This document shows positions 11,908 through 64,000 of a stretch of DNA of 64,000 nt, in pieces. Within the stretch, counting starts at the first letter, position 1. Each line of letters opens with the position of its first letter. A model generated the notes under the pieces. The model searched no databases. It was given only the letters and a program-made list of their open reading frames with translations, and was not told where the DNA came from. This stretch comes from Mobula hypostoma (Eukaryota), in assembly GCF_963921235.1 (NCBI RefSeq), contig NC_086108.1, positions 23,374,001 through 23,438,000 of the forward strand, in the 5' to 3' direction. Made by a program: the position numbers and the translations under genes.

Positions 11908-12364
11908 GTAGGTTAACATTGATTGCCCTAACTGGACATGGTGAGTAATAAACATGAACCATTTAGGCTATGGGATGGAGCATTATATATCCCAATAAAA
12001 TGATAAATAAAATTTATTGAAAGCAATTGGGAATTTATTTTAAACATTTCTCTTTGATGCTGTGAATCACGAGCTGTTGAATTTGGTTAATCTTACATCC
12101 CATCCACTTTTCCACTAAAGGCCTCAGTTCATCATTGAAAAGTTTTTACTCTTATGTTTAGATTTTGCTCATGTTCTGCTCAACCTGAAACACTAATTCA
12201 TTTTTCCCTCCACTGAGATGCCTGAATTGTCTATTTCCAGTGTTTTCTGCTTTTATTTCCTGCTCACTGATTTTATTCATCTGATATTCCTGCCTTAATA
12301 TACAAACTTGTAGAAAGGACAGAATCTAATCTGCTGCTTTCGTTATACCACCTATTTAAATATA

Positions 12365-13735: not shown

Positions 13736-15024
13736 TAAAGCTTTTGGTCCCCAGTAAGTGAATATGACTGGAATAAAAGGCTAAAGTATATCAGTGGAGA
13801 GGGTCAAAAGACCAAATAAAATGCATTTGACCAAGGCTGGTGTATGATTGACCACTGAGTGAGCATTATGGATGTTTGCTCTCTTCAGTTTGTGCATGCT
13901 CCTTTTGATGTACAGTCAAGTTTCAGAGTCAATAAAATTTGGGTTGAAATCTCAGTCTACGTCTAGACCTCTCTTTTTCCTTCAGTCTAGGTGAATAAAG
14001 AAGATTCCATTTGGAAATAGCCTATTTGCACAGTCCACGTCCCATGGGAACAGAGAAGCACAAGTCAAAGTTACTCATTAGTCCGCTAATTTTGGATTTT
14101 TTGAAACATATGCATATATGATAGATTTTCTTCCTTGATATCATAATGCTCTGTGAACATGCTCAATCATATCCTATTAATCTATTCAGACTCATAACCC
14201 TGGCTTCTCCATTTAAAAGCCATATTTCATCAAATGAATTGAAGTAATGTGTCCATTATTGCCCTTTAAAAAATGTCTGTGATGCTGAAATACCATTGCA
14301 TCAGCAACTCAGAACGCTCACGTAATATACTATGTTCTTCTATTTATAACACTATGAGTGATCAAATGTTATACATAATATTCAAACAAGCTTCTCTTCA
14401 GTGGAGGCAAAATTTCTATTATTCATGTGATGGAGATGGAACCCACTGAAATTTCAGAAAAGTTTGAAGTATTTGCTACAACAGAGAGTTTCACTGAGCA
14501 GTGGGCATGATGCATATATTTCTAAATGCTTTATTCCAGCCAGGGTGAGCTAGCTAACTTCTTTATGCATTCATGATAAAGAGGTTTTCTGATAGTGTTT
14601 TACTTCTTAAGTGAAGGAGCAAAAAGGACTGGGACATTTATTCCCGATCTGCTCATATTTTTATGAAGCAAAACAGTTGTCATACTTCTAATAACCATGT
14701 GGCTTGGTAACTATTGTGAAGCCCTCAGTAATTATGATTGCAAAGGCTAAGCAAATATATTAGAGTCCATGGGATTTGGAACTGTATCGAGTGGTTCTAA
14801 AATTGGCCTTCAATCAGCAAAGTTTTCGCAGGATGGGACTGGGAGGGGCAGAACAGAAAAATGGACGACAGCCCATTTTATTTTCTACTTGGTTTTTGTT
14901 TACATCAAAATCAAATTTTGGCCACTTTGCAAAATCATACAACATGAATTTCCTTGCCTGTAAAGCTGCTCACTTATGTTGTTTTTAACTCATTTGTAAT
15001 AATGAACATTGTCTGACCCTTCAG

Positions 15025-16836: not shown

Positions 16837-17099
16837 GTATGTGTGTTCTACCCAGCCACTTTACACTTCTACTACCTTGGATTTTATCGCTATCCTAATC
16901 GTGAATTCTTCTTTCAACTTCCTTAATTTAAAAATATCTGTGCCTTTAAACCTAAATGAAAATGAAGCAGTAACAAGACAAAAGAGATAGGCTTACACAA
17001 GTTCAAGGAAAGGTGGAAACCTAGCAGACTGGAAGGATTAGGAAAATGAGGTTGCTTTGGTATCTGAAAAATGTTATAAAAATTTTACCAACTTTGCCT

Positions 17100-18325
17100 C
17101 TAACTTCCTCCCTTAAATTCACTTGGTCCATCTCTGGAGACAAACTGTCAACCGATATCTTTTATAAACCTACTGATTCGCACAGTTATCTTGACTATAC
17201 CTCTTCCCACCTCATCTCCAGTAAAAATGCCTACTTTTCTCAGATTCTTCGCCTCTGCTGCATCCGTTCCCAGCACGTAGCTTTCCATTCCAGAACATCC
17301 AAGGTGTCCTCCTTCTTTAAAGTATGAGGTTTCCCTCTACCCCATCTTCCCACTGTCTTAACAGTGATAAAATTCCTCTTGTCTTTACCTACCACCCCAT
17401 CAATCTTCACATCCAACACATTATCCTTCACAACTCCCACTGTCTCCAAAAGGACCCTACCACTAAACGTAATTTTACCTCTCCTCAACTCCCTTTCCAC
17501 TTTCCACAGGGATTGCTCCCTCCATGAATCCCTTGTCCATTCATCCCTTCCCACTAATCTCTTCACGACGCTTATTCCTGCAGGCGGCTCAGGTGCTAGA
17601 CCTGCCCATACACCTTCTCCCTCACCTCCATTCAGGGCCCCAAACAGTCCTTCCAAGTAATGCAACACTTCATCTGCAAATCTGCTGGGATCGTCTATTG
17701 TGTCTGGCGCTCCCGATGCAGCCTCCTCTACATTGGTGAGACCTTTCGTAAATTTGGGGACTGCTTCGTTGAGCACCTCCACACCATCGGCCATAAGCGG
17801 GACTTCCCAGTGCTCAAAGATCTTAATTCCCATTCCCATTCCAACGTGTCAGTCCATGGCCTCCTCTTGTGGCAAGATGAGTCCACCCTCTGGGTGCAGG
17901 AGCAACACCTTATGTTCCATCTGGGTAGCCTCCAACCTGATGGCATGAATATCAATTTCTCTATCTGGTAGAGAAATTAGCCCTCCTCTTTCTACCCCAC
18001 CTGCCTATCACCTCCCTCTGGGTCCTCTCCTCTTTCCCTTTTTCCTATAGTCCACGCTCCCTCTTATTGGATTCCTTTTTCTCCAATCCTTGAATTTTCC
18101 CACTTAGCTGGTTTCACCTATCACCTCCCAGCAAGCCTCCTTCCCATCCCCCCTCCCCCACATTTTATTCTGGTCTCTTCCCCCTTCCTTCTCAAGAAGA
18201 AGCACCTCAGCCCAAAATATCAACTATTTATTCATCTCCATAGATGCTGCCTGAGCTGCTGAGTTCCTCCAGCATTTTGTGTGTGTTGCTCTGGATGTCC
18301 AGCATTTGCAGACTTTCTTGTGTTA
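17100..18325 (+). mobile_element. Penelope-like element 3' part (RT thumb, GIY-YIG endonuclease, tail)
   Basis: LSTDIFYKPTDSHSYLDYTSSH and GIVYCVWRSRCSLLYIGETFRKFGDCFVEHL, then a C/T-rich 3' region and a conserved gatgctgcctga tail. Confidence 0.88.
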
Positions 18326-21074
18326 TAGGAAGTTCAAATAGGGAATGTGGAAAGAATACCTTGTAAATGAAATCAAAGCTAACATTAAAAGTTTACATAA
18401 ATATGTTATGAGAATGGGAATGGCTCGGGACTATAAGGACATTAAAGATAGGTGAATGTAAGAGTATAAGAAAATGGATGAATTCTGTATCCATTTTGAT
18501 TGCAGAGGGAAAAGACAGTTAGTATTGATTTAAGGCATGTTCCAAATATGTTCCAAGATTTGCTAAATAACCTAGCTCTAGAGAAAGGGATATGACTGAC
18601 CCCTAGAATCTCAAGGATTGCATCTGCTATTGTATTAAGTAGGTAAAGTGGTGGTGATAATTATTTAAAAAATAAATCTTTCAAATCTGAAGGTCTAGAT
18701 TTTAAGAGGGAGTGGAGACTGAAATGAGGAAATCAAGTTAGTTTAACACCTGCCATTGGAAAGCTCCTGGAATTAATTTCAGTTACCTCTCCCAAAACGA
18801 TATCCTCACCATTGAGGCTCCAGTAACCTTCATTTGGTTCTTTTGGGCAAGCCACACATTTTGCATGCTGCATCGGGTTCTCAAATCAGACTCTCTATTC
18901 TGAATTTTGTCAAATGAATTATTGTCAGGTGGACAGAGAAATATATACAGAGAATGTGCTCAAACTTTCCTTAAAGTAATACAGCATTGCCGTTGACTGT
19001 AGGAATCTCCTTTTCCCACTCCCTGAAAATCACTTGAAGTAGAGAAGAAACTTTGGGATGTTAATGAGAACCTCTACAGTACTACTGAACCCTGTGTAAC
19101 TGACAGAAGCAGTACACCACCTCAAAAGCCAGCCATCTGTCTGCCCCATCACAAACTTCTACCTATCTGCACATGAGTCTGCTGTTCCCAATTGGCCTCA
19201 TTAGGAATAAACAAAAGAGGAAGTACATTAGGTCATCCTTGATCCCGACAGAAGGAAGAAGAAGTAATGTTGAAGAAACAATCCAATCTGTATTACTGCA
19301 GCTTGAACATACACCTTGGTGAAAGTGTTATTCTAGTTTTGTGAAGGAAAGGGGATGTCAGGCAAACCATGGAGTTAATTTGCATGTTAGATATTCTTTA
19401 TGTATTTAATAAGGTTCTGACAGGAGACATAACAAAATATGAGTGCATATTGAATTGGACTTAATCTTCTGGCACTCTTTATAAGGAAAAAATTAGGCTG
19501 TGGGAAAAGAGAGCTGTTGTGTATTTAAGATTTAAGTAATATTTCAGTAACCTTGTGTGTGTGTATATATATATGTTGATTAAACATTCTTGTTCATTTA
19601 AATAATTCATTATGAGTTGTATGTACAAATATGTGAATTGTATCTCATGATGCTACCACATGATACATGCACACCTTACTTAAAGTAAACTTGAAGTCAG
19701 ACTCGTATATCGGACTCTATTTCTTCCTGTGAGCTACTTTAATGTTTTGAAGTTACAAAACATAACAGCTGCACTTCATCTCATTAATGTGGAAGGACAA
19801 ATAACATCTCCCAGTTTCTCACAATGTATAGAAATTATTTGGGTGAAGGAATCTAGGTTTTCTGATGAAACTAAACCAGGAGACAGTGTAACTTATGTTA
19901 ACTGGAGAAATCACATAGGGGCTTTTAATGTGAGTGGGAAGAATGAAATAATCCATTTTGAATTCAAGGAATATTTATTTAAAGGCAAGAGGTGGGGACA
20001 GGATAACTGAATCATTCTGTAGAATTATACTCTGATTTCAGTATTAATGACAAATCTGAATGTCATCAGTGTTTCTAATTCTAACAGATAATAAAGAAGA
20101 CACATTTCTAGCAGTTCAATTGCACAACCAAGTTTTCTCTTGATTGGGTTCTTCCTGGTAGAAGTCACCTTTGCAAGCTTGATGCAATTTTCTATATTAT
20201 TTTATTAAAATCCCTTTTTATCTAAGACATCTCTTACAATTCAAGTTTTTTGACTATGCATATATGTGATCCTCCTTTCTTTAGCCCTCTACTTTAAAAC
20301 TGTTTATTTGTACCTTTTAAATTTGTTAGCTCTAATTCTTTTCCAGTTCTGGTGAAAAGTTTGCTGGATCAAATGCAGGAAATTCCAGATTTACTGATGG
20401 ACTTGGAAGGTTGAATCAGTCAGTTTGTTCCATTTCTGGGGTCAACATGGATTTCATTGATGAAATCCTTGGTTTTATTAAGGTTTCCCAACACATTGTT
20501 GAGCAATCACATCTTGGGTCCTGCATCAACTCCAACAGCATCTTCCAAACACATATCTACCATCAATAGGGCATCAGGGGCACGGAAACGGCACCTCCAT
20601 GTTCCTCTCCAAGTTACACACCATTCTGAATTAGAAACATACAGTACAACTGCTCCTTCATAGTCATTGGGTCTAAAATTCTGGAGCTTCCTCTCCAGCT
20701 GTGTTGTGAGTGTAGCTTCAGCAGAAGGAGTGCAGTGGCTTAAGAAGTGGTCTCACCTTCTCAGGGACAATGAGGGGTAGGTAATAAACGCTGGTCTTTC
20801 CTATGATGACCAGACCTTGAAATATGGACAAAAACAAAAATCTGACTGGCAAGGATCTGCAGTGCCACAGATTTCAATGGGCTTGATCAGGGGCAAATTT
20901 CCCTTTTAAAATCCTTTTGTATATTTTTATACTTCCAAATATTTACAATTTGTTGATTTTTTTTTTAGTTAACTTAAGAATATACTTTTTTCAATTTTAA
21001 CTATGTTTAAATGTCTCTGAATTTAAGAAGCAGAGCTGTTTTGGTCGGATCTCTCCATTTGGCCAGTTCATTGG

Positions 21075-25230: not shown

Positions 25231-25309
25231 TCAGGGAACAACAAGAAAAATCTGGAACCTTCCATGTTGCTCCCTCCCCCGCCACTGTTATTGGATGATT
25301 AACCAGTAG

Positions 25310-27335
25310 AGATAGCCCAGGAAATTATGGACCAGTGAGTCTTACCTCAGTGGTTGGTAAATTGATGGAGAAGATCCTGAGAGGCAGGATTTTTGAACAT
25401 TTGGAGAGGTATAATATGATGAGGAATAGTCAGCATGGCTTTGTCAGGGGCAGGTCGTGCCTTACGAGCCTGATTGAATTTTTAGAGGATGTGCCTAAAC
25501 ACATTGATGAAGGAAGAGCAGTAGATGTAGTGTATATGGATTTCAGCAAGGCATTTGATAAGGTACCCCATGCAAGGCTTATTGAGAAAGTAAGGAGGCA
25601 TGGGATCCAAGGGACATTGCTTTGTGAATCCAGAACTGGCTTGCCCACAGAAGGCAAAGAGTGGTTGTAGACGGGTCATATTCTATATGGAGGTCGGTCA
25701 CCTGTGGAGTGCTTAGTCCTAGTCATAGTCATAGTCATACTTTATTGATCCCAGGGGAAATTGGTTTTCGTTACAGTTGCTCCATAAATAATAACTAGTA
25801 ATAGAACCATAAATAGTTAAATAGTGATATGTAAATTATGCCAGTAAATTATGAAATAAGTCCAGGACCAGCCTATTGGCTCAGGGTATCTGACCCTCCA
25901 AGGGAGGAGTTGTAAAGTTTGATGGCCACAGGCAGGAATGACTTCCTATGACGCTCTGTGTTGCATCTCGGTGGAATGAGTCTCTGGCTGAATGTACTCC
26001 TGTGCCCACCCAGTACATTATGTAGTGGATGGGAGGCATTGACCAATATGGCATGCAACTTGGGCAGCATTCTCTTTTCAGACACCACCGTGAGAGAGTC
26101 CAGTTCCATCCCCACAACATCACTGGCCTTACGAATGAGTTTGTTGATCCTGTTGGTGTCTGCTACCCTCAGCCTGCTGCCCCAGCACACAACAGCAAAC
26201 ATGATAGCATTGGCCACCACAGACTCGTAGAATATCCTCAGCATTGTCTGACAGATGTTAAAGGACCTCAGTCTCCTCAGGAAATAGAGATGGCTCTGTC
26301 CCTTCTTGTAGACAGCTTCAGTGTTCTTTGACCAGTCCAGTGTATTGTCAGGGATCTGTTCTGGGACCCTTATTCTTCGTGATATTTATAAATGACCTGG
26401 ATGAGGAAGTGGAGGGATGGGTTAGTAAGTTTGCTGATGACACAAAGGTTGGAGGTCTTGTGGATAGTGTAGAGGGCTGTCAGAGGTTACAGCGGGACAT
26501 TGGTAGGATGCAAAACTGGGCTGAGAAGTGGCAGATGGAGTTCAACCCAGATAAGTGTGAAGTGGTTCATTTTGGTAGGTCAAATATGATAGCAGAATAT
26601 AGTATTAATGGTAAAACTGTTGGCAGTGTGGAGGATCAGAGGGATCTTGAGGTCCGAGTCCATAGGACGCTCAAAGCAGCTGCACAGGTTGACTCTAGTT
26701 AGGAAGGCATACGATGTGTTGTCCTTCATCAATCGTGGAATTGAACTTAGGAGCTGAGAGTTAATGTTGCAGCTATCTAGGACCCTGGTCAGACCCCACT
26801 TGGAGTACTGTGCTCAGTTCTGGTCGCCTCACTACAGGAAGGATGTGGAAGCCATAGAAAGGGTGCAGAGGAGATTTACAAGGATGTTTCCTGGATTGAG
26901 GAGCATGCCTTATGAGAATAGGTTGAGTGAACTCGGCCTTTTCTCCTTGGAGCAACAGAGGATGAGAGGTGATCTGGTAGAGGTATATAAGGCAATGAGA
27001 GGCATTGATTGTATGGATAGTCAGAGGCTTTTCCCCAGGGCTGAAATGGTTGCCACAAGAGGACACAGGTTTAAGGTGCTGGAGAGCAGGTACAGAGGAG
27101 GTGTCAGGGGTAGGTTTTTTTGCTCAGAGTGGTAAGTATGTGGAACTGGCTGCCGGCAACGGTGGTGGAGGCAGATACGATAGGATCTTTTAAGAGACTT
27201 TTGGATAGGTACATGAAGCTTAGAAAAATAGAGGGCTATGGGGAAGTCTAGTAATTTCTAGGGTATGGACATGTTCGGCACAACTTTGTGGGCCAAAGGG
27301 CCTGTATTGTGCTGTAGGTTTTCTATGTTTTTATG
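25310..27335 (+). mobile_element. 5'-truncated CR1 LINE (RT and 3' UTR) split by a Rex1-like insertion
   Basis: VSLTSVVGK, SQHGFVRGRSCLT, YMDFSKAFDKVPH, QGSVLGP, KFADDTK, RPHLEYCAQFWSP, then a ttctatgtt tail. Confidence 0.93.
25714..26347 (-). mobile_element. Rex1/Babar-like LINE 3' end with (CTATGA)n tail
   Basis: MLRIFYESVVANAIMFAVVCWG...HPLH...CNTERHRKSFLPVAIKLYN. Inserted in the CR1 GVP|QGS motif. Confidence 0.85.
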
Positions 27336-30300
27336 TTCCTATTCCTTTTGTATGCCACCTACTAGATGTGAACACACTCCATTTTGAAATGACAACAAGA
27401 AGCAGCTACTCTTTTGTGTAATTTAAAATAAATGTGTTTGGTGTTGCTTGAAGTCAATTTAAACATTTACCTCGCCCCGCTTTCTTAAATTGATTACAGA
27501 TTGTGTGGTATTGGCTATTGTGATTGTATCCTGCCAACCCCCTTATGTATGGCAAAGAGGTAGTAAATTTGAACAGAAGGTTTACTGGAGTAGACTAATG
27601 CAACAGTTTTGGCCAGGGGGAGACAACTGATCTGTACATTCTACCTTATACACTTTGAAATTGCACTGGTTCTATGAAAGATACAACATCTTTCTTTCTG
27701 CTTGCGTGGCTCTGACATTTGAGTTTTTCTGATTGTGTCTGGCTATTTATCCAGTTGTATGCCAGTTGTAAGAGAAAAGATACAGTTGTTCTTCTAGCCC
27801 TTATACCCCAATAAAATTTGGAAGGGACCATTTTATCTTTGGCTTTATTTATATTGCCTTTCAAGGAAGGGTGCTTCCATTCCTTTTTGAACAAGGTCAA
27901 AGTGATTTTGATGGTGCGTGCAATTGTTTGGTAATGCACTTGGATTTTTTTTATAGTTTTGAAGCACTGTTGTTCCTTTGGACAACTTTCACTGGATCAG
28001 TCCTACCAAAGGCAATGTTGAAATCTTCAATGTTTTCTTTGTCAAAAACATTGAGTTGTCTGTAGATAATCACAAATGCTGGGCTCAGACTGGCTATATC
28101 CAATTTAAGAATGACATGAATGTTATAGTTGATTTTAATCAATACCACATATCTTAAATTTAAATTGTATGATAATTGGCTGTCTTGGTATAAGTAAATT
28201 AAAAGGAGTGCTTGGAAAAGCTTACAGTTAGATATCTTAGTAATTTTAGTTGTTTTTAAAAACTGTTTCTTACCTCATTGAAAAATTGTGCAAAATCTGT
28301 GCTTTTCATCGCTTGCTAATTTACAGCTGAATGTTAATTCTATACGTACTTATGTAACTACTACATCTGTAAAGAATGCTAAAACGCTGACTGTCTTTCA
28401 AGGATTTTCTGTTTTTATTGAAAGATTGCTGCTGTTTCATTCTGCATGGCAATGTGAGCTTTACTTATTTATTTGACTGTAGACATTTCTGCCAAGGCGC
28501 CTCAGAATGTAATGGCAAGTTACCATCTGGAACTGCTGCAGCACTTCATAAGAAGATATTCTGAAGTACTGCTGGCAAGGTTATTCCTGGATTTAGATCC
28601 AACAATGACATGGCAATGGTGATATATTTTCATTTCAGGATGGCAGGGAACCTGCATGTTGTGGTATTCCCATTTTACTGACGACCTTCTTCTTCTTCTT
28701 CTTTGTTTTTATGGCACAGAGTATAACTGGGGGAATTTTTCGCAATGGTGGGTTGACACCAATTACTGTACTGGCTTGATATGGAGTATGTTTGGAATGT
28801 TATCTGATCCTCTCTGTATCCAGTGTTCTCAGCCATTTCAAGATATCACCTGGAGTGAATTAGTTTGGTTTGCAGATTGGCTTCGGTGACGGTGGGGATC
28901 TTAAGAGGAAGATAAGGTGGTTGCAAATACTTCAGCCCCCTTTTGAACACTCACATGAGAATGCCCTCTATATCATTGACTCTGACAATGTACTTGGAGC
29001 CTTCTCGATGTGGGAAGATCACAAGCTGGATTTGATGAGTTGTATGATAGTTTAGTTTTATCCATTGCATTCTCATTTTGTTTGTTAGCATGTATGTAGT
29101 TCTGTTCTGCAGTTTAATAAGGTTGACACCGATATAACCATACTGTTCCCAGCATGCCTTTCTGTGCTTCATATTGACCTTGATTAATTTCCTGGCTTGA
29201 TAGTTACAGTAGAGTGAGTGGAGTGTCAGACAATGTCATTGTGTATATTTCTGTTGCTGCAGATGGTCCACAGCACTTGAATGGATGCTTGGTTTGAGTT
29301 GTTGTGAGCATGTTATATGGTGTCACATGATGGAGAGTGTCTTTGTTGTGAACATGGGGTATTGTCTTCACAAGAACTGCGTCATTTTCTCACCGCTATT
29401 ATGAATGAATACACCTGCCACAAATAGAGTAGGGGAGTCTCGTTTCTGCAATACCTGTATACCGAGCTGTGTCCACAACTGTTCACGGTTACTTGCTGTC
29501 ACGGGCAGAGCAGAAGCTGCAATGCATCTGAGTAGGATGGTTTTTGTGGTGAGGGTCAGTGGGGACATTCACATTTCTTCAGCCTCCTGAGGAAGTAGAG
29601 TTTCTGGTAAGCTTTCACCAGCTAATTAGCTGCTGGTAAGCTGGTGAGGAATCCAACAATGTCTCAGTTTTAAATGTCTTAATCTAACTTTTAGCCTTCT
29701 CAAAAGCTTTGAAAGTTTCTCACTCTCTAAACTTCTGCAAGTACAGTACAGTGATCTCCATGTTCTCGCAGTTTTGTGTAGAAAGTACCCACTTCCCTCA
29801 TGTATATTTTGATTTCTGCTGCTTTGGATCTTGGCATTTGAATTTCTGCTTTTAACCTCTCTAGCTCTCTCTCCTCATTTCAAAAGCCTCTCTAATCCTA
29901 CTCAACCAAATTTTCTTCTTAAACTGCTCCTGGTCACATTTCGCATTCTTACTCTTAACAGACACTGCTACTTATCAAAACCCATAACATATTTGAACAC
30001 TTCAACCAAAACTTCTTATTGTACTCTGCTTAAGGGTGAATAATCCCAGATTCTTCTGTCTCAGTACCTGAATGAAGCCAAGAATAGTCTGCAAGTACAC
30101 TAACAGCCAGCTTCTGAATACAAATAGCTCTGCCCTCAGTTATGATCTCACTTTTGTCCGCCTTCGCCTGCACCCGCCACGATGGCAGCCTCCTCTTCCA
30201 TCGCCTTGTCTCCAAGCCCAATTCTTTGGCAAGGATTCCACACCCTGTGCTGATGACCCCTTCTCCTGACTTCAACCTTCCTCCTCTTCTTGGACACTCT

Positions 30301-31170: not shown

Positions 31171-32948
31171 ATGATCTTATGGTGAAGAAGAGGCCATCAG
31201 GGCCAAAGAATTGAAAGTTATTGAGGAGATCGAGAGCATGAAAAGTGTCACGGATGTAAATAGGAAGGGTCTGACCAAGGGGATAGAATGGAATTGAGAT
31301 ACGAGGACATGAGTTCAGTGGGGGAGGAGCAGACCGAAACAATAGGCCTGTCCCTGTTTGGATAATAGTCCACACTGTTGTTCCTTTTACCGAAATACAT
31401 TATCATACCTTTTCCAACTATATTCCATCTGCCACTTTTTTGTCCATTCTTCCAGTTTGGCTGTCCTGCAACAATTGCATTGCTTCCTCAGCACAACCTA
31501 CTCTTCCCCCTGTCTTTGTATCATACACTATGGATGTTCAGTCCCTATACACTTCTATCCCCACCAAAGCCTTAAAGCTCTCCGCCTTTTTCTTGACAAA
31601 AGAATCAACCAATTCCTCTCCGCCACAACCCACCTCCGTCTGTCAGAAATGGTCCTCACCCTGAACAAGTTTTCCTTCGGCTCCACCCACTGGCTCCAAA
31701 CTCGAAGGATAGCCATGGGCAGCGTATGGGGCCCAGCTATGGCTGCCTCTTTGTTGCCTATGTAGAACAGTCCATGTTTCAAGCCTTTCCCAATAATACT
31801 CCCCAGTTCTTCCTCCGCTACATTGATGACTGCACTAGCGCTGCTTTATGCACCCATGCTGAGCTGGTCAATTTAATCAACTTTGCCTCTAACTTCCACC
31901 TTGCCTTTAAATTCACTTGGTTCATCTCTGACTCCTCCCTCCTCTTTCTCGATCTCTCTGTCTTCATCTCTAGAGATAAGCTGTCAACTGACATCTTTTA
32001 CAAACCTACTGGTTCCCATAGTTATCTCGGCTATACTTCTTCCCACCCTATCCCCTGTAAGAATGCTACTCCCTTTTCTCAGTTTCTTCACCTCCACCAT
32101 ATCTGTTCCCAGGATGTGCCTTTCTGCTCCAGGACATCAGATATGTCCTCCTCCTTTAAAGAACGAGGTTCCCTCCCTCCACAGGTGATGCTGCTCTCAC
32201 CCGCCTCTCCTCCATTTCCCAAACATCCACGCTCACCCCATTTCCCGCCACCTTAACAGTGATAATAATCCCTCTTTTCCTTACCTACCACCCCATCAGC
32301 CTCTATATCCAACATATTATCTTCTGCAATTTCTGCCATCTGCAAAGGGATCTTGCCACAAAACATACCTTTATCTTCCCCCCCGCCAGCTTTCCCACTA
32401 ATTGCACTCTCCACAATTCCCTTATTCATTTGTCCTTCCCTAATAATCTCCCTCCCAGCACTTATCCCTGCAAACAGCCTAAGTGCTACATCTGCCCACA
32501 TACCTCCTCCCTCACCTCTGTTCAATTGGGGAACCGCTTCATCAAGCCCCTCCGCTCCATGCGCCATGTGCAGGACTTCCGTTGGTGAAACATGTGCCAA
32601 GATTAGGCCTCGCTCAGGATGAAGGAGCATCACCTTGTATTCCATCTGGGTAGCCTCCAACCTGATTGCATGAATATCAATTTTTCCTTCTGGTAAACAA
32701 ATTTTCTGCCACCCCTTCCTCTATTCCCCACTCAGACCTTTTACCTCTTCTCACCTGTTTATTACTTCCTCCTGCTCCCCTGGTTCTCTCCTCCTTCCTT
32801 TTCTCCTATGGCCCAGTGTCCTCTCTATAAGATTCCATCTTCTCCAACCCTTGACCTTTCCCAACCATCTGGCTTCACCTATCACATTCCAGCTAGCCTA
32901 CTTCCCCTCACGCCCCCTTTTTAGTTTGGCATTTTCCCCTTCTTTCTC

Positions 32949-32984
32949 AGTCCTGAAGAAAGGTCTCGGCCTGAAAAGTTGACT
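32949..32984 (+). ncRNA. Minimal type I hammerhead ribozyme, degenerate copy
   Basis: AGTC-CTGAAGA-A-AGGTCTCGGCCT-GAAA-A-GTT-GACT. The stem III palindrome is broken (AAGT instead of ACGT). Confidence 0.6.
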
Positions 32985-35900
32985 CTGTATTCATTTCCAT
33001 AGATGTTGCCTAACAGTGATGGTGTGAGTTTAGGAACTCTTATATTGTGTGCTTGTGATGCCATTTGTGCTTGCTATCTTGTGTGTGCTTTGTGCTGTGT
33101 ATGACTGTTGGCACTGTGCTTTTCACCTTGACCCTGGAGTAACACTGTTTCATTTGGCTGTATTCATGAGTATTAATGATTGAATGCCAATTAAACTTGA
33201 ATTGAATTAACCTGCTGAGTTCCTCCAACATTTTGTGTGTGTTGCTTTGGATCTCCTGCATCTGCAGACTTTCTCGTGTTTATAGTGAAAGAAGGGTTAA
33301 TTAATTTTTGTTGCCTTTAGTGCAGTCTTGGTTAACTGCTCATCGTTTAGACAGTGCAAATATGTTGTAATTAGATCAGTCCATGCATGAATAGACCTCA
33401 CCTTCCTCTCTCTTAATCTGTCAGGCTGCAAAAAGATGTGGTTAAAAGTGGAACAGTGGAAAGTCCTTCCACTTTCAGGCATGAAGATTGTTTATGTAAT
33501 GTGCGGCACATTTGATTAGTAATAATTTATGCTGTCATTTCGCTTGTTATTAGGACTACTTTGGATTTGTATGAATGTTCCATTGCAAATTTATGCGCAC
33601 TTTAACTGGCAGCAGAATGACTGCAAAAGTTTAAGTTTAAAAATCAGTTCCAGCTCCCTGAAGGTTCACTTGGCAGGTGGACTGGCTGGTGTGCAACTGT
33701 GTCATGCTGACCAGCAAAGACCCAAGTTCAACTCCTGGCGGTTCCTGACATGAATGACGGTGCTATGGGGAAATAAATAAAATACACTTGTTTGGAAATT
33801 TGTATATCCCTAATGTCTTTCAGCCAACAAACTACTTTGGAAATGTAACCGCTATTATAATACAGGGAAGCATCACAAATATTTCGTTCATCTCAGGATG
33901 CCAGGTGTAGCAAAGAAATTGGATGTAATACTGGGAGAAAGTTCCTGCTTATTGAATAATTCTGTGGCTTCTTTTTCATCATATGGGTGGTGAAATGGGA
34001 CCTGGGTTTAATACTTCATTGGAAAGGCATTATCAAAGTACAGAGGGTTTTATGTGGTACATTCATATTATGTGGAAGTTGTAGACAATGGCAGTATTTA
34101 ATGGTTATTGCTAATTGCTCCTGAAGTGAGGAGCCAGTGGTGTGTCATCACCTATTTTTTATGTCAAGCATAACCTATGACTTTCTGATTTCCGAGCAAG
34201 GATCGCACCATTGAGCTAAGCCAAACAAAGAATTCAATTGGGTTAACCCTCCTGATAACGAAAAGAGAAAATAATCATCTGAGATTTCTGATACTCACCA
34301 CTGTTTCTGGAGCTGGCGCCTAGATGGAAATTGGCCTCGGATATCCAAGATCAGTCTATTTGTAAGGCCTCGGCTTAACAGTTGCATATGATGTTACCTC
34401 AAGAGCAATCCACCCCTGAGCAAAGCACTGGATAGGATCCACTGTTTCTGGCATTTCATATCATAGCAGAGCAGAAAATTGGAGGGAGTTGTTTTAAAAT
34501 AAAGTCCATTCCTGCAATTTTTATGCACTTAAGTTGTGAATTCTATTAATCAATTCTCACTTGCAATGGGGGTTGGGGGGTCTATATAAACACAAGCAAT
34601 CCTAGAGGGAAACATCAACAACTGTGCACTGAGGATGTCACCTCAACTGGTGATGCAAGCTAATTGCCAAGCTCAGTGAACACCACAACATCAAACTGTG
34701 AAAGACGTTTGGAGTTTTTGGATCAGATTAGAGGAGTAGACACTCATTTCATTGTACAGACATAATTGAGCATCACCTTATGTGATGTCTGTTCCATTTT
34801 CGACTAATGTTGTTAAAGACTCAACTTCAAGAACGGTCCTGTGCAATGTATTCAGTTTTTCTCCTCGCAGAGTATCTTACTTGCATTAGTTATGGTTATA
34901 TTAGATTAGATGTCAAATTGAGTTCTGCAGATTTTCACACTTGTTTTTGCCATCCAGCTGTGTGGAGGTACAGGAGTGAGAAGGACAAGTTTTGCATATA
35001 CTTTCCATTGTCTGGATGGAGAAAAGCAGTGGCTTTTTATGTTCTTTTGTCCATGTCATTACTGTCATTCATTAGTTTTTCAAAAGTTAGAAATATTTTA
35101 ACCTCTTTCCCACTGTCAATGATTAGAGACACTTTAGAGATATTTCTGTCGACCTGATTCCACATTTAGGCCAACCTCCAACAGCACATACGCCATGCTG
35201 CACTGTCTCTGGCGTGTATTCACCTGGACTGCAACAGCATGCAAGCCCGTAGCTTGAGGCCTAGTCCTTGCCACAGTTGATGCTTCGCAGCTGTCTCATC
35301 ACTTGTCTCGCCACCAAACAAGGGAAACAGGCCTGTAGAAGCTTATATTATCCATGTCCAATAGGGTCTTGCGATTACAAGGGAAATGTCTGAGATAGTC
35401 ACCCATAGTTACGCTGCACATCACCTTCATGCACCAACTCCAATGCCTTCGAGTAGCAGGCAGCAACATGGTCTGCTCCCAGGTCAGCCTCTCCAAATCC
35501 AATCGGGTCCTCGGTCATGCCGGCCGGCTCCTTCACTGACAAGCTGGCCTGCTCCTTCAACACCTCAGCTGGCTCCTTTGACACCCTAGCCAGCATTGCT
35601 GACATCCAGTGCAGCTGCTCTGATCAATAAACAGCTTAGTGATGTAGATCTTCAGTACCTGAAGTTCGTGGAGTCCAGAATTGTCTTTCAATTGTAATGA
35701 AACACATTTAACAAAGAAAAAGCTCCTTTGCACCCCCAGCGGCTGCTGCGTCTGAATACGCTGTCATCCTTCTGGAAATTTAAAACTCATCTGAAAGCAA
35801 ACACGTGAATAAAGAACATAGGAGAATCAGAAAATAAGGTGGGCTGGGAAATGGAAGTGTGAACAGAGAATTTGGGTTCTACTTTATTGCATACCCCAAA

Positions 35901-41985: not shown

Positions 41986-42911
41986 ATATGTCGCTTTGTA
42001 CATCAACACATGGCACATCCCTTTTCATGCTTTGTGCAACCAAGTGGATGACCTTGTATCCTCTGCATCCACCATCAACCACTTCTTTACCTGTTCACCC
42101 AGCTTGTTATATGACCTTAAAACTTCTTTACATCCTCCCCCATGTTCACAATCCCTCGTATAGGATCATGACCAGACTTGGAAAAAGGACTGCTCAATGT
42201 GGAAATATATTTTGATTAGTTTATTCATTGCAGACCATTGTCTTTTGGTGGACTATCAGTACAGATTCTGTTGAAGAGGTTTCACAGGATGCAGAGCCTG
42301 CTGGTTTACAAACAGCAAAGTACTTAAATGCTTGCTTTGATCTATCTTGAAGATTAAACAATGATGATAGGTTCGGAATTTGGCAATTGTAATTTAACCC
42401 CCAATATTTAGTTCCTACATTCACACTGCGGCAGGCTCCATTTGATTACCCTAGGTGCCACAAATACATATAGTTGAGCTTAATATGAGATAGTTGTCTT
42501 GCTTCTTTCAACATATAGAGGAGACAGATTACAGCTTTTCACTCTCCCCATCATCTCTTGAGACATTGCTTACAACGAAGCTGTGATGCAGCTATATGGT
42601 TACAATAAATAATCATAAATAAGTACATCTTTCCAAAAATGTATTTATTTATTGCATGTGTTTAGGATGTCACTGATATTTACTACTCATCCCTAACTTA
42701 CTTTAAGAAGGTGATTTGAGCTGCTTTTGAAAACCACTTCAGTCCTTGTGAAATTCCTTCCACAGTAGTTCGATGACAGTTCAAGAATTTCGATCCATTG
42801 AGAAGCGTATATTTCTGAGTCAGAATGGTTTGGGACTTGCAGATGATAGGGTTTCCACATGCTTGCTCGTTCTAGCTGGTTTGGGCTTAAATCAGCATGG
42901 ACGTTTTCTTG

Positions 42912-42992
42912 CAACACACATCAAAGTTGCTGGTGAACGCAGCAGGCCAGGCAGCATCTATAGGAAGAGGTGCAGTTGACGTTTCAGGCCGA
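42912..42992 (-). mobile_element. About 85-bp Penelope tail insertion truncated inside the hammerhead
   Basis: Near-identical to the reverse complement of 60295-60378. Flanked by the direct repeat GACGTTTTCTTG (42900-11, 42993-43004). Confidence 0.85.
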
Positions 42993-43513
42993 GACGTTTT
43001 CTTGTTTCTTACACTCTCACAAACGGAATTGTGCTTCAGAATTCTGTGGTTAAAACTGATATTATTTCATATGTAATTGTTGTGTAATAACCTTTCAAGT
43101 GAGAATCATTATACATTTTGCCAACACATTGCCAATCACTTTCTAAAATACAATGATGCATTGAAGGAACGTGCAGCCAACTTGACTTTGGTTAACCAGT
43201 GTTAAGATTGTTGTGATGCCTTTGCCTAAACAATGGCCTTCAAAACAACAGCAATACCTAATAAATCATTAGCTGTTGTTGACTTTAGTGACTGTTAAAT
43301 TTGATATTGATCAGTATGACTAGAATGAGGAAAAATGCAAGTGACTGGGGTTACATCTAGCTTTTTGGCAAAATGTTCTTTTATTGCCCTGTAACTTCTC
43401 AGATTGTTTTCAGGAATTAACAGAAATGATTTACTTATGAACCAAGATCTGTCAGAAACTGGTTCATTTCCTGATAATTTTTGTCCCATGCAAGGGTCAT
43501 TTATTAAAAGACT

Positions 43514-47105: not shown

Positions 47106-47338
47106 GTGTTGTAAATAAAGTGTTTGATCGTTTGACCTGGTAATAAATCACAGACTACTTAAAATTGGATCAATCCATTTTAAAGGAGTTGAGAAAACAA
47201 TTAAGTAATTTTGAAATGAATCTATAACTTCCCTGGGAATAATTCAAATGTCATTGAGAGCCTTAGGCTCATTTGGAATTTACCTTTTGGTTAATGAGAT
47301 GAAGGAAATTAAAATATCCTTTCTTATTGCTCCTTCAG

Positions 47339-47516
47339 ACAAAGGTTTCTTTGATCTGCAAGCATGGAAAGTGGGATGGAGCTGTGACCTGTGAACCCAT
47401 TGACTGTGGAATTCCTGACCAGTCACATGTATACCATGCCAGTTTTTTTTGCCCTGAAGGCACCACTTTTGGAAGCCAATGCATCTTCTCCTGCAATCCA
47501 CCAGCAATACTGCAAG
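47339..47516 (+). CDS. PAPPA2: Pappalysin-2-like internal exon 7 of 7 (end of CCP1, start of CCP2)
   Basis: tccttcag|ACA...CAAG|gtatag. TKVSLICKHGKWDGAVTCEPIDCGIPDQSHVYHASFFCPEGTTFGSQCIFSCNPPAILQ(G). 178 bp, phase 0 to 1. The next exon was not found in the window. Confidence 0.95.
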
Positions 47517-47779
47517 GTATAGGAATGTTAACATTCATGTTCTTTCTTCAAATAAGTAGAATGTCTTCAAATAAGATAGTTGAAATGTAAAATATTGGGA
47601 CAAAAACACACAAAAAGTTACTGTACTGCCAGCAATGCTCTACTAGAAAGGCTGTTACCCTGTGTGTAGTTCAAGCTACCAGATCAGGGTATTGATCTTA
47701 AATGATTCAAAAGTCTGTGTTCAATAAATTTGGATAATGGTGAGAAGAGATTAGCTTATGATCCTACTCTTGAATAAAA

Positions 47780-53167: not shown

Positions 53168-55599
53168 TACTTCGCTTCAGTATTCACCAGGGATAAAGAC
53201 CTTAGCAATTGTGGGGATTACTTACAGAGAACTGAAATACTTGAGCATATAGACATTAAGAAAAAGGATGTGCTGGAAAGTTTGAAAAGTACTGTTAGAT
53301 AAGTCACCGGCACCGGATGAGATATACCCCAGGCTACTGTGGGAAGCGAGGAAGGAGATTTCTGAGCCTTGTGTGCTGATCTTTGTGTCATCAATAGGGA
53401 CGGGAGAAGTACTGGAGGACTGGAGGGTTGCAAATGTTGTCCCTTGTTAAGAAAGGGAGTAAAGATAACCCAGGAAATTATAGACCAGTGAGTCTGACTT
53501 CAGTGGTGGGCAAGTTGTTGGAGAAGCTCCTGAGAGGCAGGATTTATAAGCATTTGGAGAGATTAGGAATAGTCAGCATGTCTTTGTCAAGGGCAGGTAG
53601 TGCCTTACGAGCCTGACTGAATTCCTTGCAGAAGTAATAAAACACATCGATGAAGATAGAGCAGTGGATGTAGTGTACATGGATTTCAGTAGGGCAGTTG
53701 TTAAGATTCCCCATGCAAAGCCCATTCAGAAAGTAAGGAGGAATGGGATCCAAGGAGACCTTGTTTTGTGGATCTGGAATTGGCTTGGCCACAAAAGGCA
53801 AAGGGTGGTTGTAGATGGTTTGTATTCTGCATGGAGGTCGGTGACCGGTGGTGTTCTGCAGGGATCTGCTCAAGGACCTCTCCTCTTTGTGATTTTTATA
53901 AATGACTTGGATGAGGAAGTAGAAGGGTGGGTTAGTAAGTTTGCTGATGACACAAAGGTTCGGGTGTTGTGGATGGTCTGGAGGGTTGTCAGAGGTTACA
54001 GCGGGACATTGATAGGATGTACAACTGGGCTGAGAAGCGGCAGAAGGACTTCAACCCAGATAAGTGTGAAGTGGTTCAATTTGGTAGGTCAAATTTGAAG
54101 ACAGAATATAATATTCTTGGTAAGACCTTTGGCAGTGTGGAGGATCTGAAAGATCTTGGGGTCTGTGTTGATTGGACACTCAAAGCTGCTGCGCAGGTTG
54201 ACAGTGTTGTTAAGAAGGTGTATGGTGTGTTGGCATTCATCAACTGTGGGAATGAGTTCAAGAGCCGTGAGGTAATGTTACAGCTATATAAGACGTTGGT
54301 CAGACCCCACTTGGAGTAATGTGTTCAGTTCTGGTCACCTCACTATAGGAAGGATGCGGATACTATAGAGAGTGCAGAGGAGACTTACAAGGATGTTGCC
54401 TGGATTGGAGGGCGTACCTTATGAGAATAGGTTGAGCGAACTTGGCCTTTTCTCCTTGGAATGACAGAGGATGAGAGGTGATCTGATAGAGGTGTATAAG
54501 ATGATGAGGGGTATTGATCATCTGGATAACCAGAGGCTTTTTCCCAGGGTTGAAATGGCTAATACAAGGGGGCATAGTTTTAAGGTGGAAATAGGTACCA
54601 AGGGAATGTCAGGGGTAAGTGGTGGGTGCTTGGAATGCACTGCTGGTGGCGGTGGTGGAAACGGATACAATAGGGTCTTTTAAGAGCCTCTTAGATAGGT
54701 ACATGGAACTTAGAAAAATAGAAGGCTATGCAACATTGTGGGCCAAAGGTCCTGTGTGCTGTAAATATCTGTGAACTATTCTCTTTGAACTAAAAGACAT
54801 AGAAAATTAAGTAAGTGTGCTGATAGAAATAAAATGGCAGGCATATCAAAGAAACGTTGAAACAAAGCTAATGATGATGAATTATTCCTCTCTGTAGTTC
54901 ATCAACTCTCTTAAATTCCTATTAAAGAACTTAACCTGGTTGAAAATTATGCCTTTGCATAATTGCATGCTCTGACAGTTGAACAGAGGGAGATTACAGC
55001 TATTCCAAAACCAAAACACATAAAAAGTATCTGACAATAACTGCTTGAGTCAGGATGTTTGGAATGTGCATGCACACTTGCATGAAAATCACAAAGAGAA
55101 TGGCAATTATTGCAGGGAAATGTCAAAGTTGAGATTATTGTCCTTTGCACAAGTACATGTATGCATAATTGCAAAGTAAAAGAAATACTTGTAGCAGCAT
55201 CACAGGCACATAGCACTGCAGATGTTTCACAGCCTTTGAGTTTGTGCACTGTAATCTAATATGGAGCAGCCTTTGTGACAGGGTGCTCATTATTAAAAAC
55301 TGTATCATTTGTGATTATTTTATTTCCACCGTTCTGAAGCCCTGCACTGTAGACTAATTCAAACCATCTGCAAATTATTCAGGAAATTGATAAAAAGAGA
55401 TAACATGGAAAGAAATGCTATCAACAGATAAAATCATATAGGCTCTAGATTTTCTCCTAGCAGTTTGCAGCCTCATTCATTACTGATCTACATATTAAAT
55501 ATGATTTGATCTATCATTGTAAGTGTGAACTATCATGCTGCCCAGCCCAATAATGGGAGTAATATATGCAAATTCAGAGCTAGTTATTATAGAAGAACC

Positions 55600-58120: not shown

Positions 58121-59239
58121 TAAACAGATCCTTCTCAGATTGATGCTCTGTGTTACTGGATTACCACAGATCAAAGGCAAAGTAAAATTTGTTATCAAAA
58201 TGTGTATATGTTACCGTATATTATCCTGAGATTCATTTTCTTGCAGGCATTGACAGAAAAAGGTTAAGTGTTTGGGTTTCAAATATTCATAACCTGTATC
58301 AATGACTTGTCTGAGGGGTGAAATGTGTTTTCAAGTGAAAAATTACCTGTAAAGTGAAAATCTGAAATGCTCAAATACCCAGTAATTCAGTCCATGTTCG
58401 TGAGAAGAGAAAGAGGGCTGATGTTTCAAGCTGAAGAGCTATTATGAGACCATGTTTCCAAGTTATATTTCCAAGTTTGCTAACAGTACTAAATGAGGTG
58501 GGATTATGAGTATGGAGGAAGATGTAAAGAAGGTTTGAAAGAATATGGACTCATTGACTGTGTGGGCATGGTATGACATATAAAATATGATGTGTAAACT
58601 GTGAAGTTGTCCACTTTGGTGAACATTCTAGAAAAGCAATGTATTTATCAAATGATGAGGGATTAGGTAGTGTTGATATTTAGACGGACCTTTGTGTGTT
58701 TGTATATTGGTCAATATACAAGGGTAAATATCATATTGGCCTCTTTAGCAAGAGGGTTTGATGACTGGAGTAGGGCATATTATTACATTTATATACAGTC
58801 TTAATGGATCTGCACCTGGAACATAGTGGATAAGTTTGGTCTCCCTACCCAAGGAATAATGGATTTGCTATTGGGGGAATGTCACAGAGGGTCACAGAGT
58901 GATCACAGAGGATCACTGATTTTAGGGATGACAAGTTGGCTTTATGAGGAGTGATTAAATAGATTAAGACTTCATTCTCTGAAGTTTAGAAGGATAAAAA
59001 GATATCTTATTGAATTGTACAAAATTCTTAAAGGGTTTGATAGGTTAGATGCAGGGAGGATGTTTCCTCCGATTTGAGTCTAGGCCTAAGGGTGGGGCAT
59101 AGTTGGAAAATAAGGGGTAGGCCTTTAAGTGAGGCAGAGATAAATCTTTGAAATTCTGTAGCCCAGAGTTACTGAACTGTGTTCATTTGAAACTGAGATT
59201 GGTAGATTCCTGAGCATTAAAAGAATCAATGGATATAGA

Positions 59240-60379
59240 CTAGGGAGATGTCTTCCTTTTTTAAAGAAAGGGGCTTCCCTTCCTCCACTATCAACTCTGC
59301 TCTTAAACGCATCTCCCCCATTTCACGTACATCTGCTCTCACTCCATCCTCCCGCCACCCCACTAGGAATAGGGTTCCCCTGGTCCTCACCTACCACCCC
59401 ACCAGCCTCCGGGTCCAACATATTATTCTCCGTAACTTCCGCCACCTCCAACGGGATCCCACCACTAAGCACATCTTTCCCTCCCCCCCCTGCATTCCGC
59501 AGGGATCGCTCCCTACACAACTCCCTTGTCCATTCGTCCCCCCCATCCCTCCCCACTGATCTCCCTCCTGGCACTTATCCGTGTAAGCGGAACAAGTGCG
59601 ACACATGCCCTTACACTTCCTCCCTTACCACCATTCAGGGCCCCAAACAGTCCTTCAAGGTGAGGCGACACTTCACCTGTGAGTCGACTGGGGTGATATA
59701 CTGCGTCCGGTGCTCCCGATGTGGCCTTTTATATATTGGCGAGACCCGACGCAGACTGGGAGACCGCTTTGCTGAACATCTACGCTCTGTCCGCCAGAGA
59801 AAGCAGGATCTCCCAGTGGCCACACATTTTAATTCCACATCCCATTCCCATTCTGACATGTCCATCCACGGCCTCCTCTACTGTAAAGATGAAGCCACAC
59901 TCAGGTTGGAGGAACAACACCTTATATTCCGTCTGGGTAGCCTCCAACCTGATGGTATGAACATCGACTTTTCTAACTTCCGCTAAGGCCCCACCTCCCC
60001 GTCGTACCCCATCTGTTACTCATTTTTATGCACACATTCTTTCTCTCACTCTCCTTTTTCTCCCTCTGTCCCTCTGAATATACCTCTTGCCCATCCTCTG
60101 GGTCCCCCCCCCTTGTCTTTCTTCCCGGACCTCCTGTCCCATGATCCTCTCGTATCCCCTTTTGCCTATCACCTGTCCAGCTCTTGGCTCTATCCCTCCC
60201 CCTCCTGTCTTCTCCTATCATTTTGGATCTCCCCCTCCCCCTCCAACTTTCAAATCCCTTACTCACTCTTCCTTCAGTTAGTCCTGACGAAGGGTCTCGG
60301 CCTGAAACGTCGACTGCACCTCTTCCTACAGATGCTGCCTGGCCTGCTGCGTTCACCAGCAACTTTGATGTGTGTTGCT
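59240..60379 (+). mobile_element. Young 5'-truncated Penelope-like element with intact GIY-YIG domain
   Basis: 14-bp TSD TCAATGGATATAGA (59226-39, 60380-93). ORF 59660-59986 reads GVIYCVRCSRCGLLYIGETRRRLGDRFAEHL...RLEEQHLIFRLGSLQPDGMN. Confidence 0.93.
60280..60315 (+). ncRNA. Minimal type I hammerhead ribozyme (intact core, dimer-type)
   Basis: AGTC(stem I)-CTGACGA-AGG.GTCTCGG.CCT(stem II)-GAAA-C-GTC^-GACT(stem I'). Palindromic ACGT in place of stem III. Confidence 0.8.
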
Positions 60380-60488
60380 TCAATGGATATAGAGATAGTT
60401 CTCGGAAATGGCTGTAAAATGAGGCATGATCTTGATGAATGATAAGGCAGGCTCAAAGGGCCATCTGGTCTCCTCCTATCCCCATGTA

Positions 60489-62026: not shown

Positions 62027-62937
62027 TAAAAGACAGACATTTGCAGTTTATGTGGCTGCAAGTGTGAACTAAAGTCACGGCTAAATTCCATTCCTTAAAT
62101 GCTTAATGGTGTACATGTTGGTTCTTACAACACTCCGTCAGTTTGTATGTCACCTTAAATGACACCAGCCTTGAACTGAGCCGTAAAATCATTTATTAAC
62201 AGCTGCGCATGATTTTTTGGCTGCGTTGACCTTCTCTGCATTATTAGAAACTGATCTTGGAAGTCAGGACTATTTTCACTGAAGGCAAATAATTAGCTGA
62301 TTACTGAAATCTACAAAGCTATAGGCCTGCTAAAATTTTGCTGCGGAGCCATCTGGGCCTTATTTGGAGCTTCAGTGTTGAATACACATTGTGCATTAGA
62401 GGGACTTCAGGTTCCATTTCTATTGCACAGTTATTAATTGCCAGTATTACTGTACCATGGAATAGAAATCTGTTGCTGGTGAGGTGGACCTGTCAGTAGA
62501 TTTGTACCAGTGGTATTAATATTTAGACTTAGAATTTGTCAATTTCCTTTGGGATTTTCGTGAAACTGGAGGGCTAATGTTAAAAAAAAACACCACTCAG
62601 GAGCTGATCCACTTGAGTTAGGGGTATAGGGTTAAGGTAATGGATAGGAATTTTGAAGGAATCTGAGGTGAATTTTTGCATCTAAAGAGTGGCCGGAATC
62701 TAGAAAACATTTGCTGAGTGGGAGGTGGAGATGAGCATTCTGATGCCATTTAAGAAGGATCTAACCGAACCCTGAAATCACCAAGAAGGCTGTGGCCCAT
62801 ATGCTGGCACATAGAATTAGCTTGTGAACTTGGTGATCATGGATAGAGTGGGACAGGGGACTTGTTTCTGTTTTGTGTGACTTGAGCACTGAGAGCTTGG
62901 GAGTTTTTAACTGTTGGAAGTACTGAGACTTTGCAGG

Positions 62938-64000
62938 ATGATAGGATTGAAGGCAGATAAATCCCCAGGGCCAGATGGTCTGCATCCCAGAGTGCTTAAG
63001 GAAGTGGCCCAAGAAATAGTGGATGCATTAGTGATAATTTTTCAAAACTCGTTAGATTCTGGACTAGTTCCTGAGGATTGGAGGGTGGCTAATGTAACCC
63101 CACTTTTTAAAAAAGGAGGGAGAGAGAAACCGGGGAATTATAGGCCGGTTAGCCTAACGTCGGTGGTGGGGAAACTGCTGGAGTCAGTTATCAAGGATGT
63201 GATAACAGCACATTTGGAAAGCGGTGAAATGATCGGACAAAGTCAGCATGGATTTGTGAAAGGAAAATCATGTCTGACGAATCTCATAACATTTTTTGAG
63301 GATGTAACTAGTAGAGTGGATAGGGGAGAACCAGTGGATGTGGTATATTTGGATTTTCAAAAGGCTTTTGACAAGGTCCCACATAGGAGATTAGTGTGCA
63401 AACTTAAAGCACACGGTATTGGGGGTAAGGTATTGGTGTGGGTGGAGAATTGGTTAGCAGACAGGAAGCAAAGAGTGGGAATAAACGGGACCTTTTCAGA
63501 ATGGCAGGCGGTGACTAGTGGGGTACCGCAAGGCTCAGTGCTGGGACCCCAGTTGTTTACAATATATATTAATGACTTGGATGAGGGAATTAAATGCAGC
63601 ATCTCCAAGTTTGCGGATGACACGAAGCTGGGTGGCAGTGTTAGCAGTGAGGAGGATGCTAAGAGGATGCAGGGTGACTTGGATAGGTTGGGTGAGTGGG
63701 CAAACTCATGGCAGATGCAATTTAATGTGGATAAATGTGAAGTTATCCACTTTGGTGGCAAAAATAGGAAAACAGATTATTATCTGAATGGTGGCCGATT
63801 AGGAAAAGGGGAGGTGCAACGAGACCTGGGTGTCATTATACACCAGTCATTGAAAGTGGGCATGCAGGTACAGCAGGCGGTGAAAAAGGCGAACGGTATG
63901 CTGGCATTTATAGCGAGAGGATTCGAGTACAGGAGCAGGGAGGTACTACTGCAGTTGTACAAGGCCTTGGTGAGACCACACCTGGAGTATTGTGTGCAGT
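62938..64000 (+). mobile_element. Young 5'-truncated CR1 with an uninterrupted RT frame running off the window end
   Basis: Stop-free frame from ATG 62938: LKADKSPGPDG...NYRPVSLTS...YLDFQKAFDKVPH...GVPQGSVLGP...KFADDTK...RPHLEYCVQ. Confidence 0.93.

Follow-up and report, generated by a model that had tools for sequence, protein, structure and literature searches.

A minimal hammerhead motif in a Penelope-like insertion within a pappalysin-2-like intron of Mobula hypostoma: a likely passenger copy

Described hammerhead systems closest to the motif

Minimal hammerhead ribozymes (min-HHRs) have been described in the pLTRs of metazoan Penelope-like elements, including Xena, Poseidon and Neptune of fishes, with 4,000 copies in coelacanth and 9,000 in Xenopus (Cervera and de la Pena 2014, PMC4209133). 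The available part of that paper reports no cleavage for min-HHR monomers and low cleavage for dimers, in line with the preliminary description of the present DNA, which had stated that Penelope hammerheads need a second copy. The motif at 60280-60315 of the window (the whole stretch of 64,000 nucleotides that was analysed) belongs to this class. Compared with the same part of PMC4209133, it has the type I topology with a short helix I of 4 bp, no helix III, the palindrome at 15.1-16.1 and the extra nucleotide between 9 and 10.1, and in its family, too, full elements hold two copies separated by about 3 kb, and truncated ones account for thousands of solo copies. It differs in that the youngest subfamily has G10.1-U11.1 and not G-C, in its short 4-bp helix II, and in that the 32,886 exact copies found here are more numerous and far more uniform. 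A motif from a shark or ray may already be among those in the supplement of PMC4209133.

A second well described case is the PAc (Poseidon) hammerhead of Anolis carolinensis (Frangione et al. 2024, PMC11167929), which according to the accessible text cuts only with the element protein, in vitro, and in a C3/G8-dependent manner. HHR mutants were there without effect on PAc insertion in vitro, uncleaved RNA was the main substrate, and RNA-seq showed no ends at the PAc site. Our family resembles PAc, as far as this text goes, in having the hammerhead in a repeat with two insertion end points downstream in the tail, and in that its genomic copies stem from uncut RNA; unlike PAc, whose start codon is in stem II, it has a likely start codon about 140 nt after the cut, and its ORF has the CX2-5CxxC linker that marks Neptune and Nematis elements (Craig et al. 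2021, PMC8557442, in part). With the endonuclease-bearing Neptune/Nematis elements in the available sections of PMC8557442 it shares the order of reverse transcriptase (RT), CX4CX2C linker and C-terminal GIY-YIG, as well as partial tandems, inverted 5'-truncated copies and an optional tail. The insertion studied here differs from them in its clear 14-bp target duplication in non-microsatellite DNA, and its clade is judged from the linker. Naiad elements thrive without a hammerhead, according to the same sections.

Domesticated intronic hammerheads have been reported in amniotes (PMC7761336, in part). These are described as few and highly conserved, and what our motif has in common with them is the sense, intronic hammerhead core; it is young, belongs to a family with tens of thousands of copies (32,886 of them exact), lacks helix III and gives no sign of locus-specific conservation, and it thus does not have the properties of a host-domesticated ribozyme. 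The non-LTR retrozymes of bioRxiv 10.64898/2026.07.22.740005, in the portion available, are also PLE-derived hammerhead repeats and also occur in a chondrichthyan; they form tandem non-coding arrays, whereas the present locus holds one truncated fragment of an autonomous element, recognisable by an ORF remnant and a target duplication. The available parts of PMC7761336, PMC6765202 and PMC8557442 describe the in vivo role of hammerheads as unknown, and a literature search on intron cleavage with exon tethering returned no paper, while one on Penelope hammerheads in sharks gave a single review.

The motif and the insertion that carries it

The coordinates of all features are collected in Table 1. 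Sequence reading of the motif gives, in order, AGUC, CUGACGA, the extra A, stem II, GAAA, CGUC and GACU. Both catalytic boxes and the UH cleavage site (GUC) are present, and the core, stem I, palindrome and C17 that the preliminary description had claimed are all read in the sequence. Its short stem II is likewise borne out by folding, which gives as the best solution the 4-bp GGGU/GCCU with a CUCG loop; the G10.1-U11.1 wobble closes this stem after the extra A, and sister copies have the G-C form. The Rfam gathering search of the whole window, the kind of hammerhead-model check that had been proposed, gave no matches. The loose pattern CTGANGA..GAAA is no more frequent in the window than chance predicts (4 seen against 6.8 expected), and the fold energy of 60280-60315 is not unusual (z -0.37). 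The identification as a hammerhead follows from the position in a Penelope tail, the 32,886 exact genomic copies and the min-HHR features published in the available part of PMC4209133.

Table 1. Position of the features in the window, with one pair of copies upstream of it
Feature	Position	Strand	Remarks
pappalysin-2-like exon upstream of host intron	47321..47518	+	intron ends ~1.2 kb past window end
motif-bearing Penelope-like insertion, 5'-truncated, with Neptune-type linker	59240..60379	+	92-98% identical to long sister copies
element ORF 3' end: last part of the RT thumb region, then CX4CX2C linker, GIY-YIG endonuclease and stop	59240..59986	+	
tail 3' of predicted cut	60312..60379	+	ends at nearer of two family end points; loose ends 60378-60384
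target-site duplication, left copy	59226..59239	+	14 bp
target-site duplication, right copy	60380..60393	+	14 bp
minimal type I hammerhead motif	60280..60315	+	basis: sequence reading, folding, PMC4209133 features (available part)
hammerhead stem I, AGUC/GACU	60280-83/60312-15	+	
hammerhead core CUGACGA	60284-90	+	
hammerhead extra unpaired A	60291	+	
hammerhead stem II	60292-95/60300-03	+	
hammerhead GAAA	60304-07	+	
hammerhead palindrome ACGU	60307-10	+	
hammerhead C17	60311	+	predicted cut after 60311
older decayed hammerhead copy, different intron	32949..32984	+	4 changes incl. ACGU to AAGU, C17 to U
85-nt young tail-only insertion	42911..42995	-	begins inside loop II, without CUGANGA
eroded hammerhead remnant of old copy	18194..18226 (approximate)	+	core lost
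two intact sense copies 487 nt apart, upstream intron, same gene	L333:402-437 + L333:889-924		~69.6 / 69.1 kb upstream of window start
inverted pair, ~530 bp, with transposase C-terminal remnant	12363-12898 and 13219-13737		91% identical

On its own, the motif is predicted to have a minimum free energy (MFE) fold in which GACG of the core is paired with CGUC, and with native flanks the predicted probability of stems I and II falls from 0.16 at 61 nt to no more than 0.002 at 140-230 nt. These values, like the dimer energies given below, are soft evidence, since ViennaRNA takes no account of tertiary contacts or proteins and puts a penalty on hammerhead junctions.

The insertion is bordered on both sides by a 14-bp target duplication, TCAATGGATATAGA. 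Its ORF, ending at 59983, has a GIY-YIG match (E 1.7e-4, just under the Pfam cut-off) and the linker CKRNKCDTC (CX4CX2C), and the motif lies about 295 nt downstream of the stop of this ORF remnant. These features agree with the young Penelope tail that had been named as the carrier. A common family 5' start at 59242 was considered and rejected; the sister copies run further upstream, and the insertion is therefore 5'-truncated. A search for the empty site in four further runs found no joint across the insertion, the flank being little covered. The insertion sits at the end of an old LINE fragment, which we take to be CR1-like, and reverse-transcriptase fragments of LINEs, presumably also CR1-like, are many in the window (62911-64000, 53400-54730, 25300-27350 and others).

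Copies, full-length elements and insertion starts in the genome

By exact pattern counting in the 3.48-Gb genome, the 36-mer of the motif occurs 32,886 times, 16,386 on the plus and 16,500 on the minus strand (binomial p 0.53), i.e. one per 106 kb, or one per 211 kb per strand; the reversed-sequence control of the 36-mer gave no occurrence in the genome. Exact tail 33-mers number 78,402, and 54,395 copies match a 35-nt pattern across the scissile bond. Two points are preferred as 3' ends family-wide, one about 68 nt and the other about 100 nt past the predicted cut, much as PAc has two reverse-transcription starts; the longer tail end has 10,519 exact copies. Many insertions are head-to-head inverted pairs with junctions inside the hammerhead at short microhomologies (GA, GAC, GACT; loci L051-L080, L081-L110 and L191-L210), and in some of these insertions the sequence from one GAC word of the motif to the other is deleted as well.

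With the RT of a sister copy as protein query, the best 150 scored matches of 41,073 candidates were taken, and among the matches listed several lie in open frames of more than 1,000 aa, the long frames measuring 1,018-1,058 aa. Four of the 16 long-ORF loci fetched (L311, L317, L318 and L322) are of full-length type, their ORF region lying between two sense motifs at a distance of 3,512-3,516 nt from each other, and another locus begins within the upstream motif. Four of the five fetched copies that reach the upstream repeat cross the 5' motif uncut. In L311 and L317 the frame is unbroken over 1,043 codons, and L322 is longer than one unit. The ORF of full-length elements is about 1,015 aa, and its start codon is likely to lie about 140 nt after the cut. 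One full ORF gave RVT_1 followed by GIY-YIG, the expected order, with both matches under the Pfam curated cut-offs, and in the ORF remnant of the window the CX2-5CxxC linker is present upstream of GIY-YIG as in Neptune/Nematis. The two hammerheads 3.5 kb apart that flank this ORF are the natural dimer partners.

The motif is well kept between subfamilies. In 16 older-subfamily copies the majority base equals that of the young motif at 35 of 36 positions, N7 being the one that differs, and mean identity is 82% in the motif, 59% downstream and 47% upstream, the first figure being inflated because the copies were picked at no more than 9 mismatches in the motif. Catalytic positions, palindrome and UH triplet are all kept across subfamilies as the flanks change, and contigs of other runs depart from the reference exactly before 60280 and after 60315. 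This constancy in older and younger subfamilies alike, while the flanks diverge, suggests that the motif serves the element and not the host. The preliminary description had named a lack of core conservation or covariation in the family as evidence against its reading; conservation is indeed found, whereas no two-sided compensatory stem change was seen in this genome, which has only the one-sided G-C/G-U change, and a metagenome scan for relatives with covariation gave none.

After insertion the hammerhead cores decay, a third slower than the tail control. Freeing A13, A14, A15.1 and U16.1 in the 35-nt pattern adds 1,270 copies (0.57% per site), compared with 1,940 copies (0.86% per site) for four A/T tail positions, a core/tail substitution ratio of 0.66 (chi-square p 3e-31, with one tail control). 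The slower decay may come from selection on the master lineage, from tail subfamily variants or from mutational context, causes which are not separable here, and weak selection on the inserted copies may also contribute.

Insertion starts were used as a test of cleavage in vivo, the copies whose match begins at the cut being compared with those at three control positions (-2, +2 and +5). Matches beginning at the cut number 693, against 318, 436 and 445 at the controls, and the first listed 50, 50, 50 and 20 loci, respectively, were classified by hand, many of them being intact motifs with point changes. Inverted junctions account for 28/50 loci at the cut and for 8/50, 8/50 and 6/20 at the controls (scaled, about 388, 51, 70 and 134). 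We rejected this excess as evidence of cleavage, since it tracks the chances for microhomology with the inverted arm, which are 20 at the cut and 2, 3 and 7 at the controls. Starts beside unrelated flank make up 6/50 at the cut and 4/50, 2/50 and 2/20 at the controls, which scales to 83 (95% range 39-165) against 25, 17 and 44, with overlapping ranges. The excess weakly hints at cutting of some element RNA in vivo, and the starts at the cut beside unrelated flank, estimated at about 80-150, correspond to at most about 0.3% of the intact read-through copies. As the 3' ends of the insertions fall in the tail, beyond the motif, the template was presumably continuous across the scissile bond in every whole-motif copy, and for the copies of this family the template RNA would almost always have been uncut (or re-ligated) when it was reverse-transcribed.

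The host intron and the part played by the motif

A tblastn search with a ray pappalysin-2-like protein placed plus-strand exons at 47321-47518 and, beyond the window, at 65236-65451, so that the motif lies in sense orientation within a 17.7-kb intron between 47518 and 65236, which confirms its proposed place in a pappalysin intron. For the 47321 exon the closest proteins (4 of 15 candidates) come from rays and a catshark and are pappalysin-2-like, and the name pappalysin-2-like is taken from these closest fish proteins; matches to solved structures divide by exon between PAPP-A and PAPP-A2. The mapped exons, all on the plus strand, begin about 146 kb upstream of the window, reach 114 kb beyond it and cover residues 198-1693, and the first 197 residues of the protein were not found in the 200 kb fetched. 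Across this 323-kb span about 1.5 exact sense copies of the motif are expected and 2 are seen, and with up to 8 mismatches allowed the counts are 11 in sense and 8 in antisense. The intron placement is therefore not special, being predicted by copy density, and it is likely due to chance. Contigs of four runs guessed to be RNA cover the element and not its unique flank, and cannot show RNA ends.

The copy at 32949-32984, which had been put forward as a partner in cis, exists, but it has lost the palindrome and C17 and lies 27 kb off in another intron. The next sense copy, 9.3 kb downstream of the motif, has ACAU instead of ACGU. The nearest intact sense partners are the two copies 487 nt apart about 129 kb upstream of the motif, which belong to two adjacent Penelope insertions and are a better candidate for a cis dimer than the 60280/32949 pair. 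The predicted active homodimer has -9.5 kcal/mol and the 60280+32949 heterodimer -4.0 (about -4 for either heterodimer), while competing folds reach -20 to -28 and the inactive duplex (-28.3) is far below the perfect homodimer. Even with only 487 nt between the copies, the prediction puts the active double hammerhead 29 kcal/mol above the MFE.

We consider it highly probable that the motif serves the element, as an inefficient and probably protein-assisted double hammerhead, and that the intronic copy is a likely silent passenger of one 5'-truncated insertion. Two motifs in an element transcript of more than unit length would pair through their ACGU palindromes to form a double hammerhead, which may serve, at low efficiency, in trimming the element RNA or making it circular, probably with the assistance of the element protein. 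Reverse transcription would begin in the tail 3' of the motif and copy through it, and because copying would start just downstream and pass through the motif, even short truncated insertions would keep it. The core of the lone intronic motif is predicted to be blocked or mispaired in the fold, and the closest intact partner is about 129 kb away; the pre-mRNA is accordingly predicted to be cut here rarely if ever.

The motif might also lack any catalytic function in this family, its retention being due solely to a role as RNA structure or as a binding site for protein beside the start of reverse transcription. This is compatible with a passenger copy in the intron and differs only on the role of the motif in the element; it would fit the four of five copies that cross the 5' motif uncut (the fifth starting inside it), the G10.1-U11.1 wobble of the youngest subfamily and, from the available parts of PMC11167929 and PMC8557442, PAc insertion in vitro unaffected by HHR mutants and the thriving Naiad elements. 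We find it unlikely, given that catalytic positions, palindrome and UH triplet are kept across subfamilies as the flanks change and that the PAc homologue, in the same part of PMC11167929, does cut with C3/G8 dependence. Rather less probable still is an incidental cleavage with no selected host role, in which intronic copies are occasionally cut with the help of element protein or abundant element RNA (e.g. in the germ line) or as close intact pairs. Such cutting would profit from the intact core, palindrome and GUC at 60280-60315, from the intact 487-nt pair in an upstream intron of the same gene, and from the long open frames (1,018-1,058 aa), from which a helper protein may be made, just as the PAc hammerhead is activated by its own protein in vitro (PMC11167929, in part). 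The weak excess of unrelated-flank starts at the cut (83 against 25, 17 and 44) points the same way, but it derives from 6/50 loci against 4/50, 2/50 and 2/20 and concerns element RNA, not host introns; moreover, the 487-nt pair would have to climb the predicted 29 kcal/mol to its active form, and the 60280 copy is without a close intact partner.

Readings that give the host intron a larger part are harder to accept. Given full-length elements and tens of thousands of identical, intact motifs in the genome, one could imagine the Penelope protein or element RNA acting as a switch for the simultaneous cutting of thousands of host introns upon expression of the element, which seems very improbable; if it were so, a transposon outbreak would bring transcriptome-wide scission of pre-mRNA, and close sense pairs such as the 487-nt pair would fire first. 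We give almost no credence to a host network, in which sense intronic hammerheads pair in cis (with 32949) or in trans, cut the pre-mRNA and tune pappalysin-2 output. The sense, intronic position, the very high copy number, which in principle makes partners plentiful, and the domesticated intronic hammerheads reported for amniotes in the available part of PMC7761336 speak for it; against it are the density of exact sense copies (about 1.5 expected, 2 seen), the 11 sense and 8 antisense copies, the youth of the insertion in an active-looking family, the broken palindrome and U17 of 32949, the ACAU of the copy 9.3 kb downstream and the decay of the cores of inserted copies. The ribozyme network in host pre-mRNA proposed in the preliminary description is accordingly not upheld, its placement being predicted by density, its named partner degenerate and the inserted cores accumulating substitutions.

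As a single locus, 60280-60315 is ordinary under the favoured reading of a passenger copy. The family has a modest use, in that more than 50,000 near-identical copies together with intact full-length elements make up a large natural data set on the role of the Penelope hammerhead. Within the window, older Penelope copies at 17081-18330 and 31870-33285 are about 65-72% identical to the young one and have decayed hammerheads, and the tail-only insertion at 42911-42995 has a duplicated flank of about 9-12 bp. The inverted pair at 12363-12898 and 13219-13737 is presumably Tc1/mariner-like.
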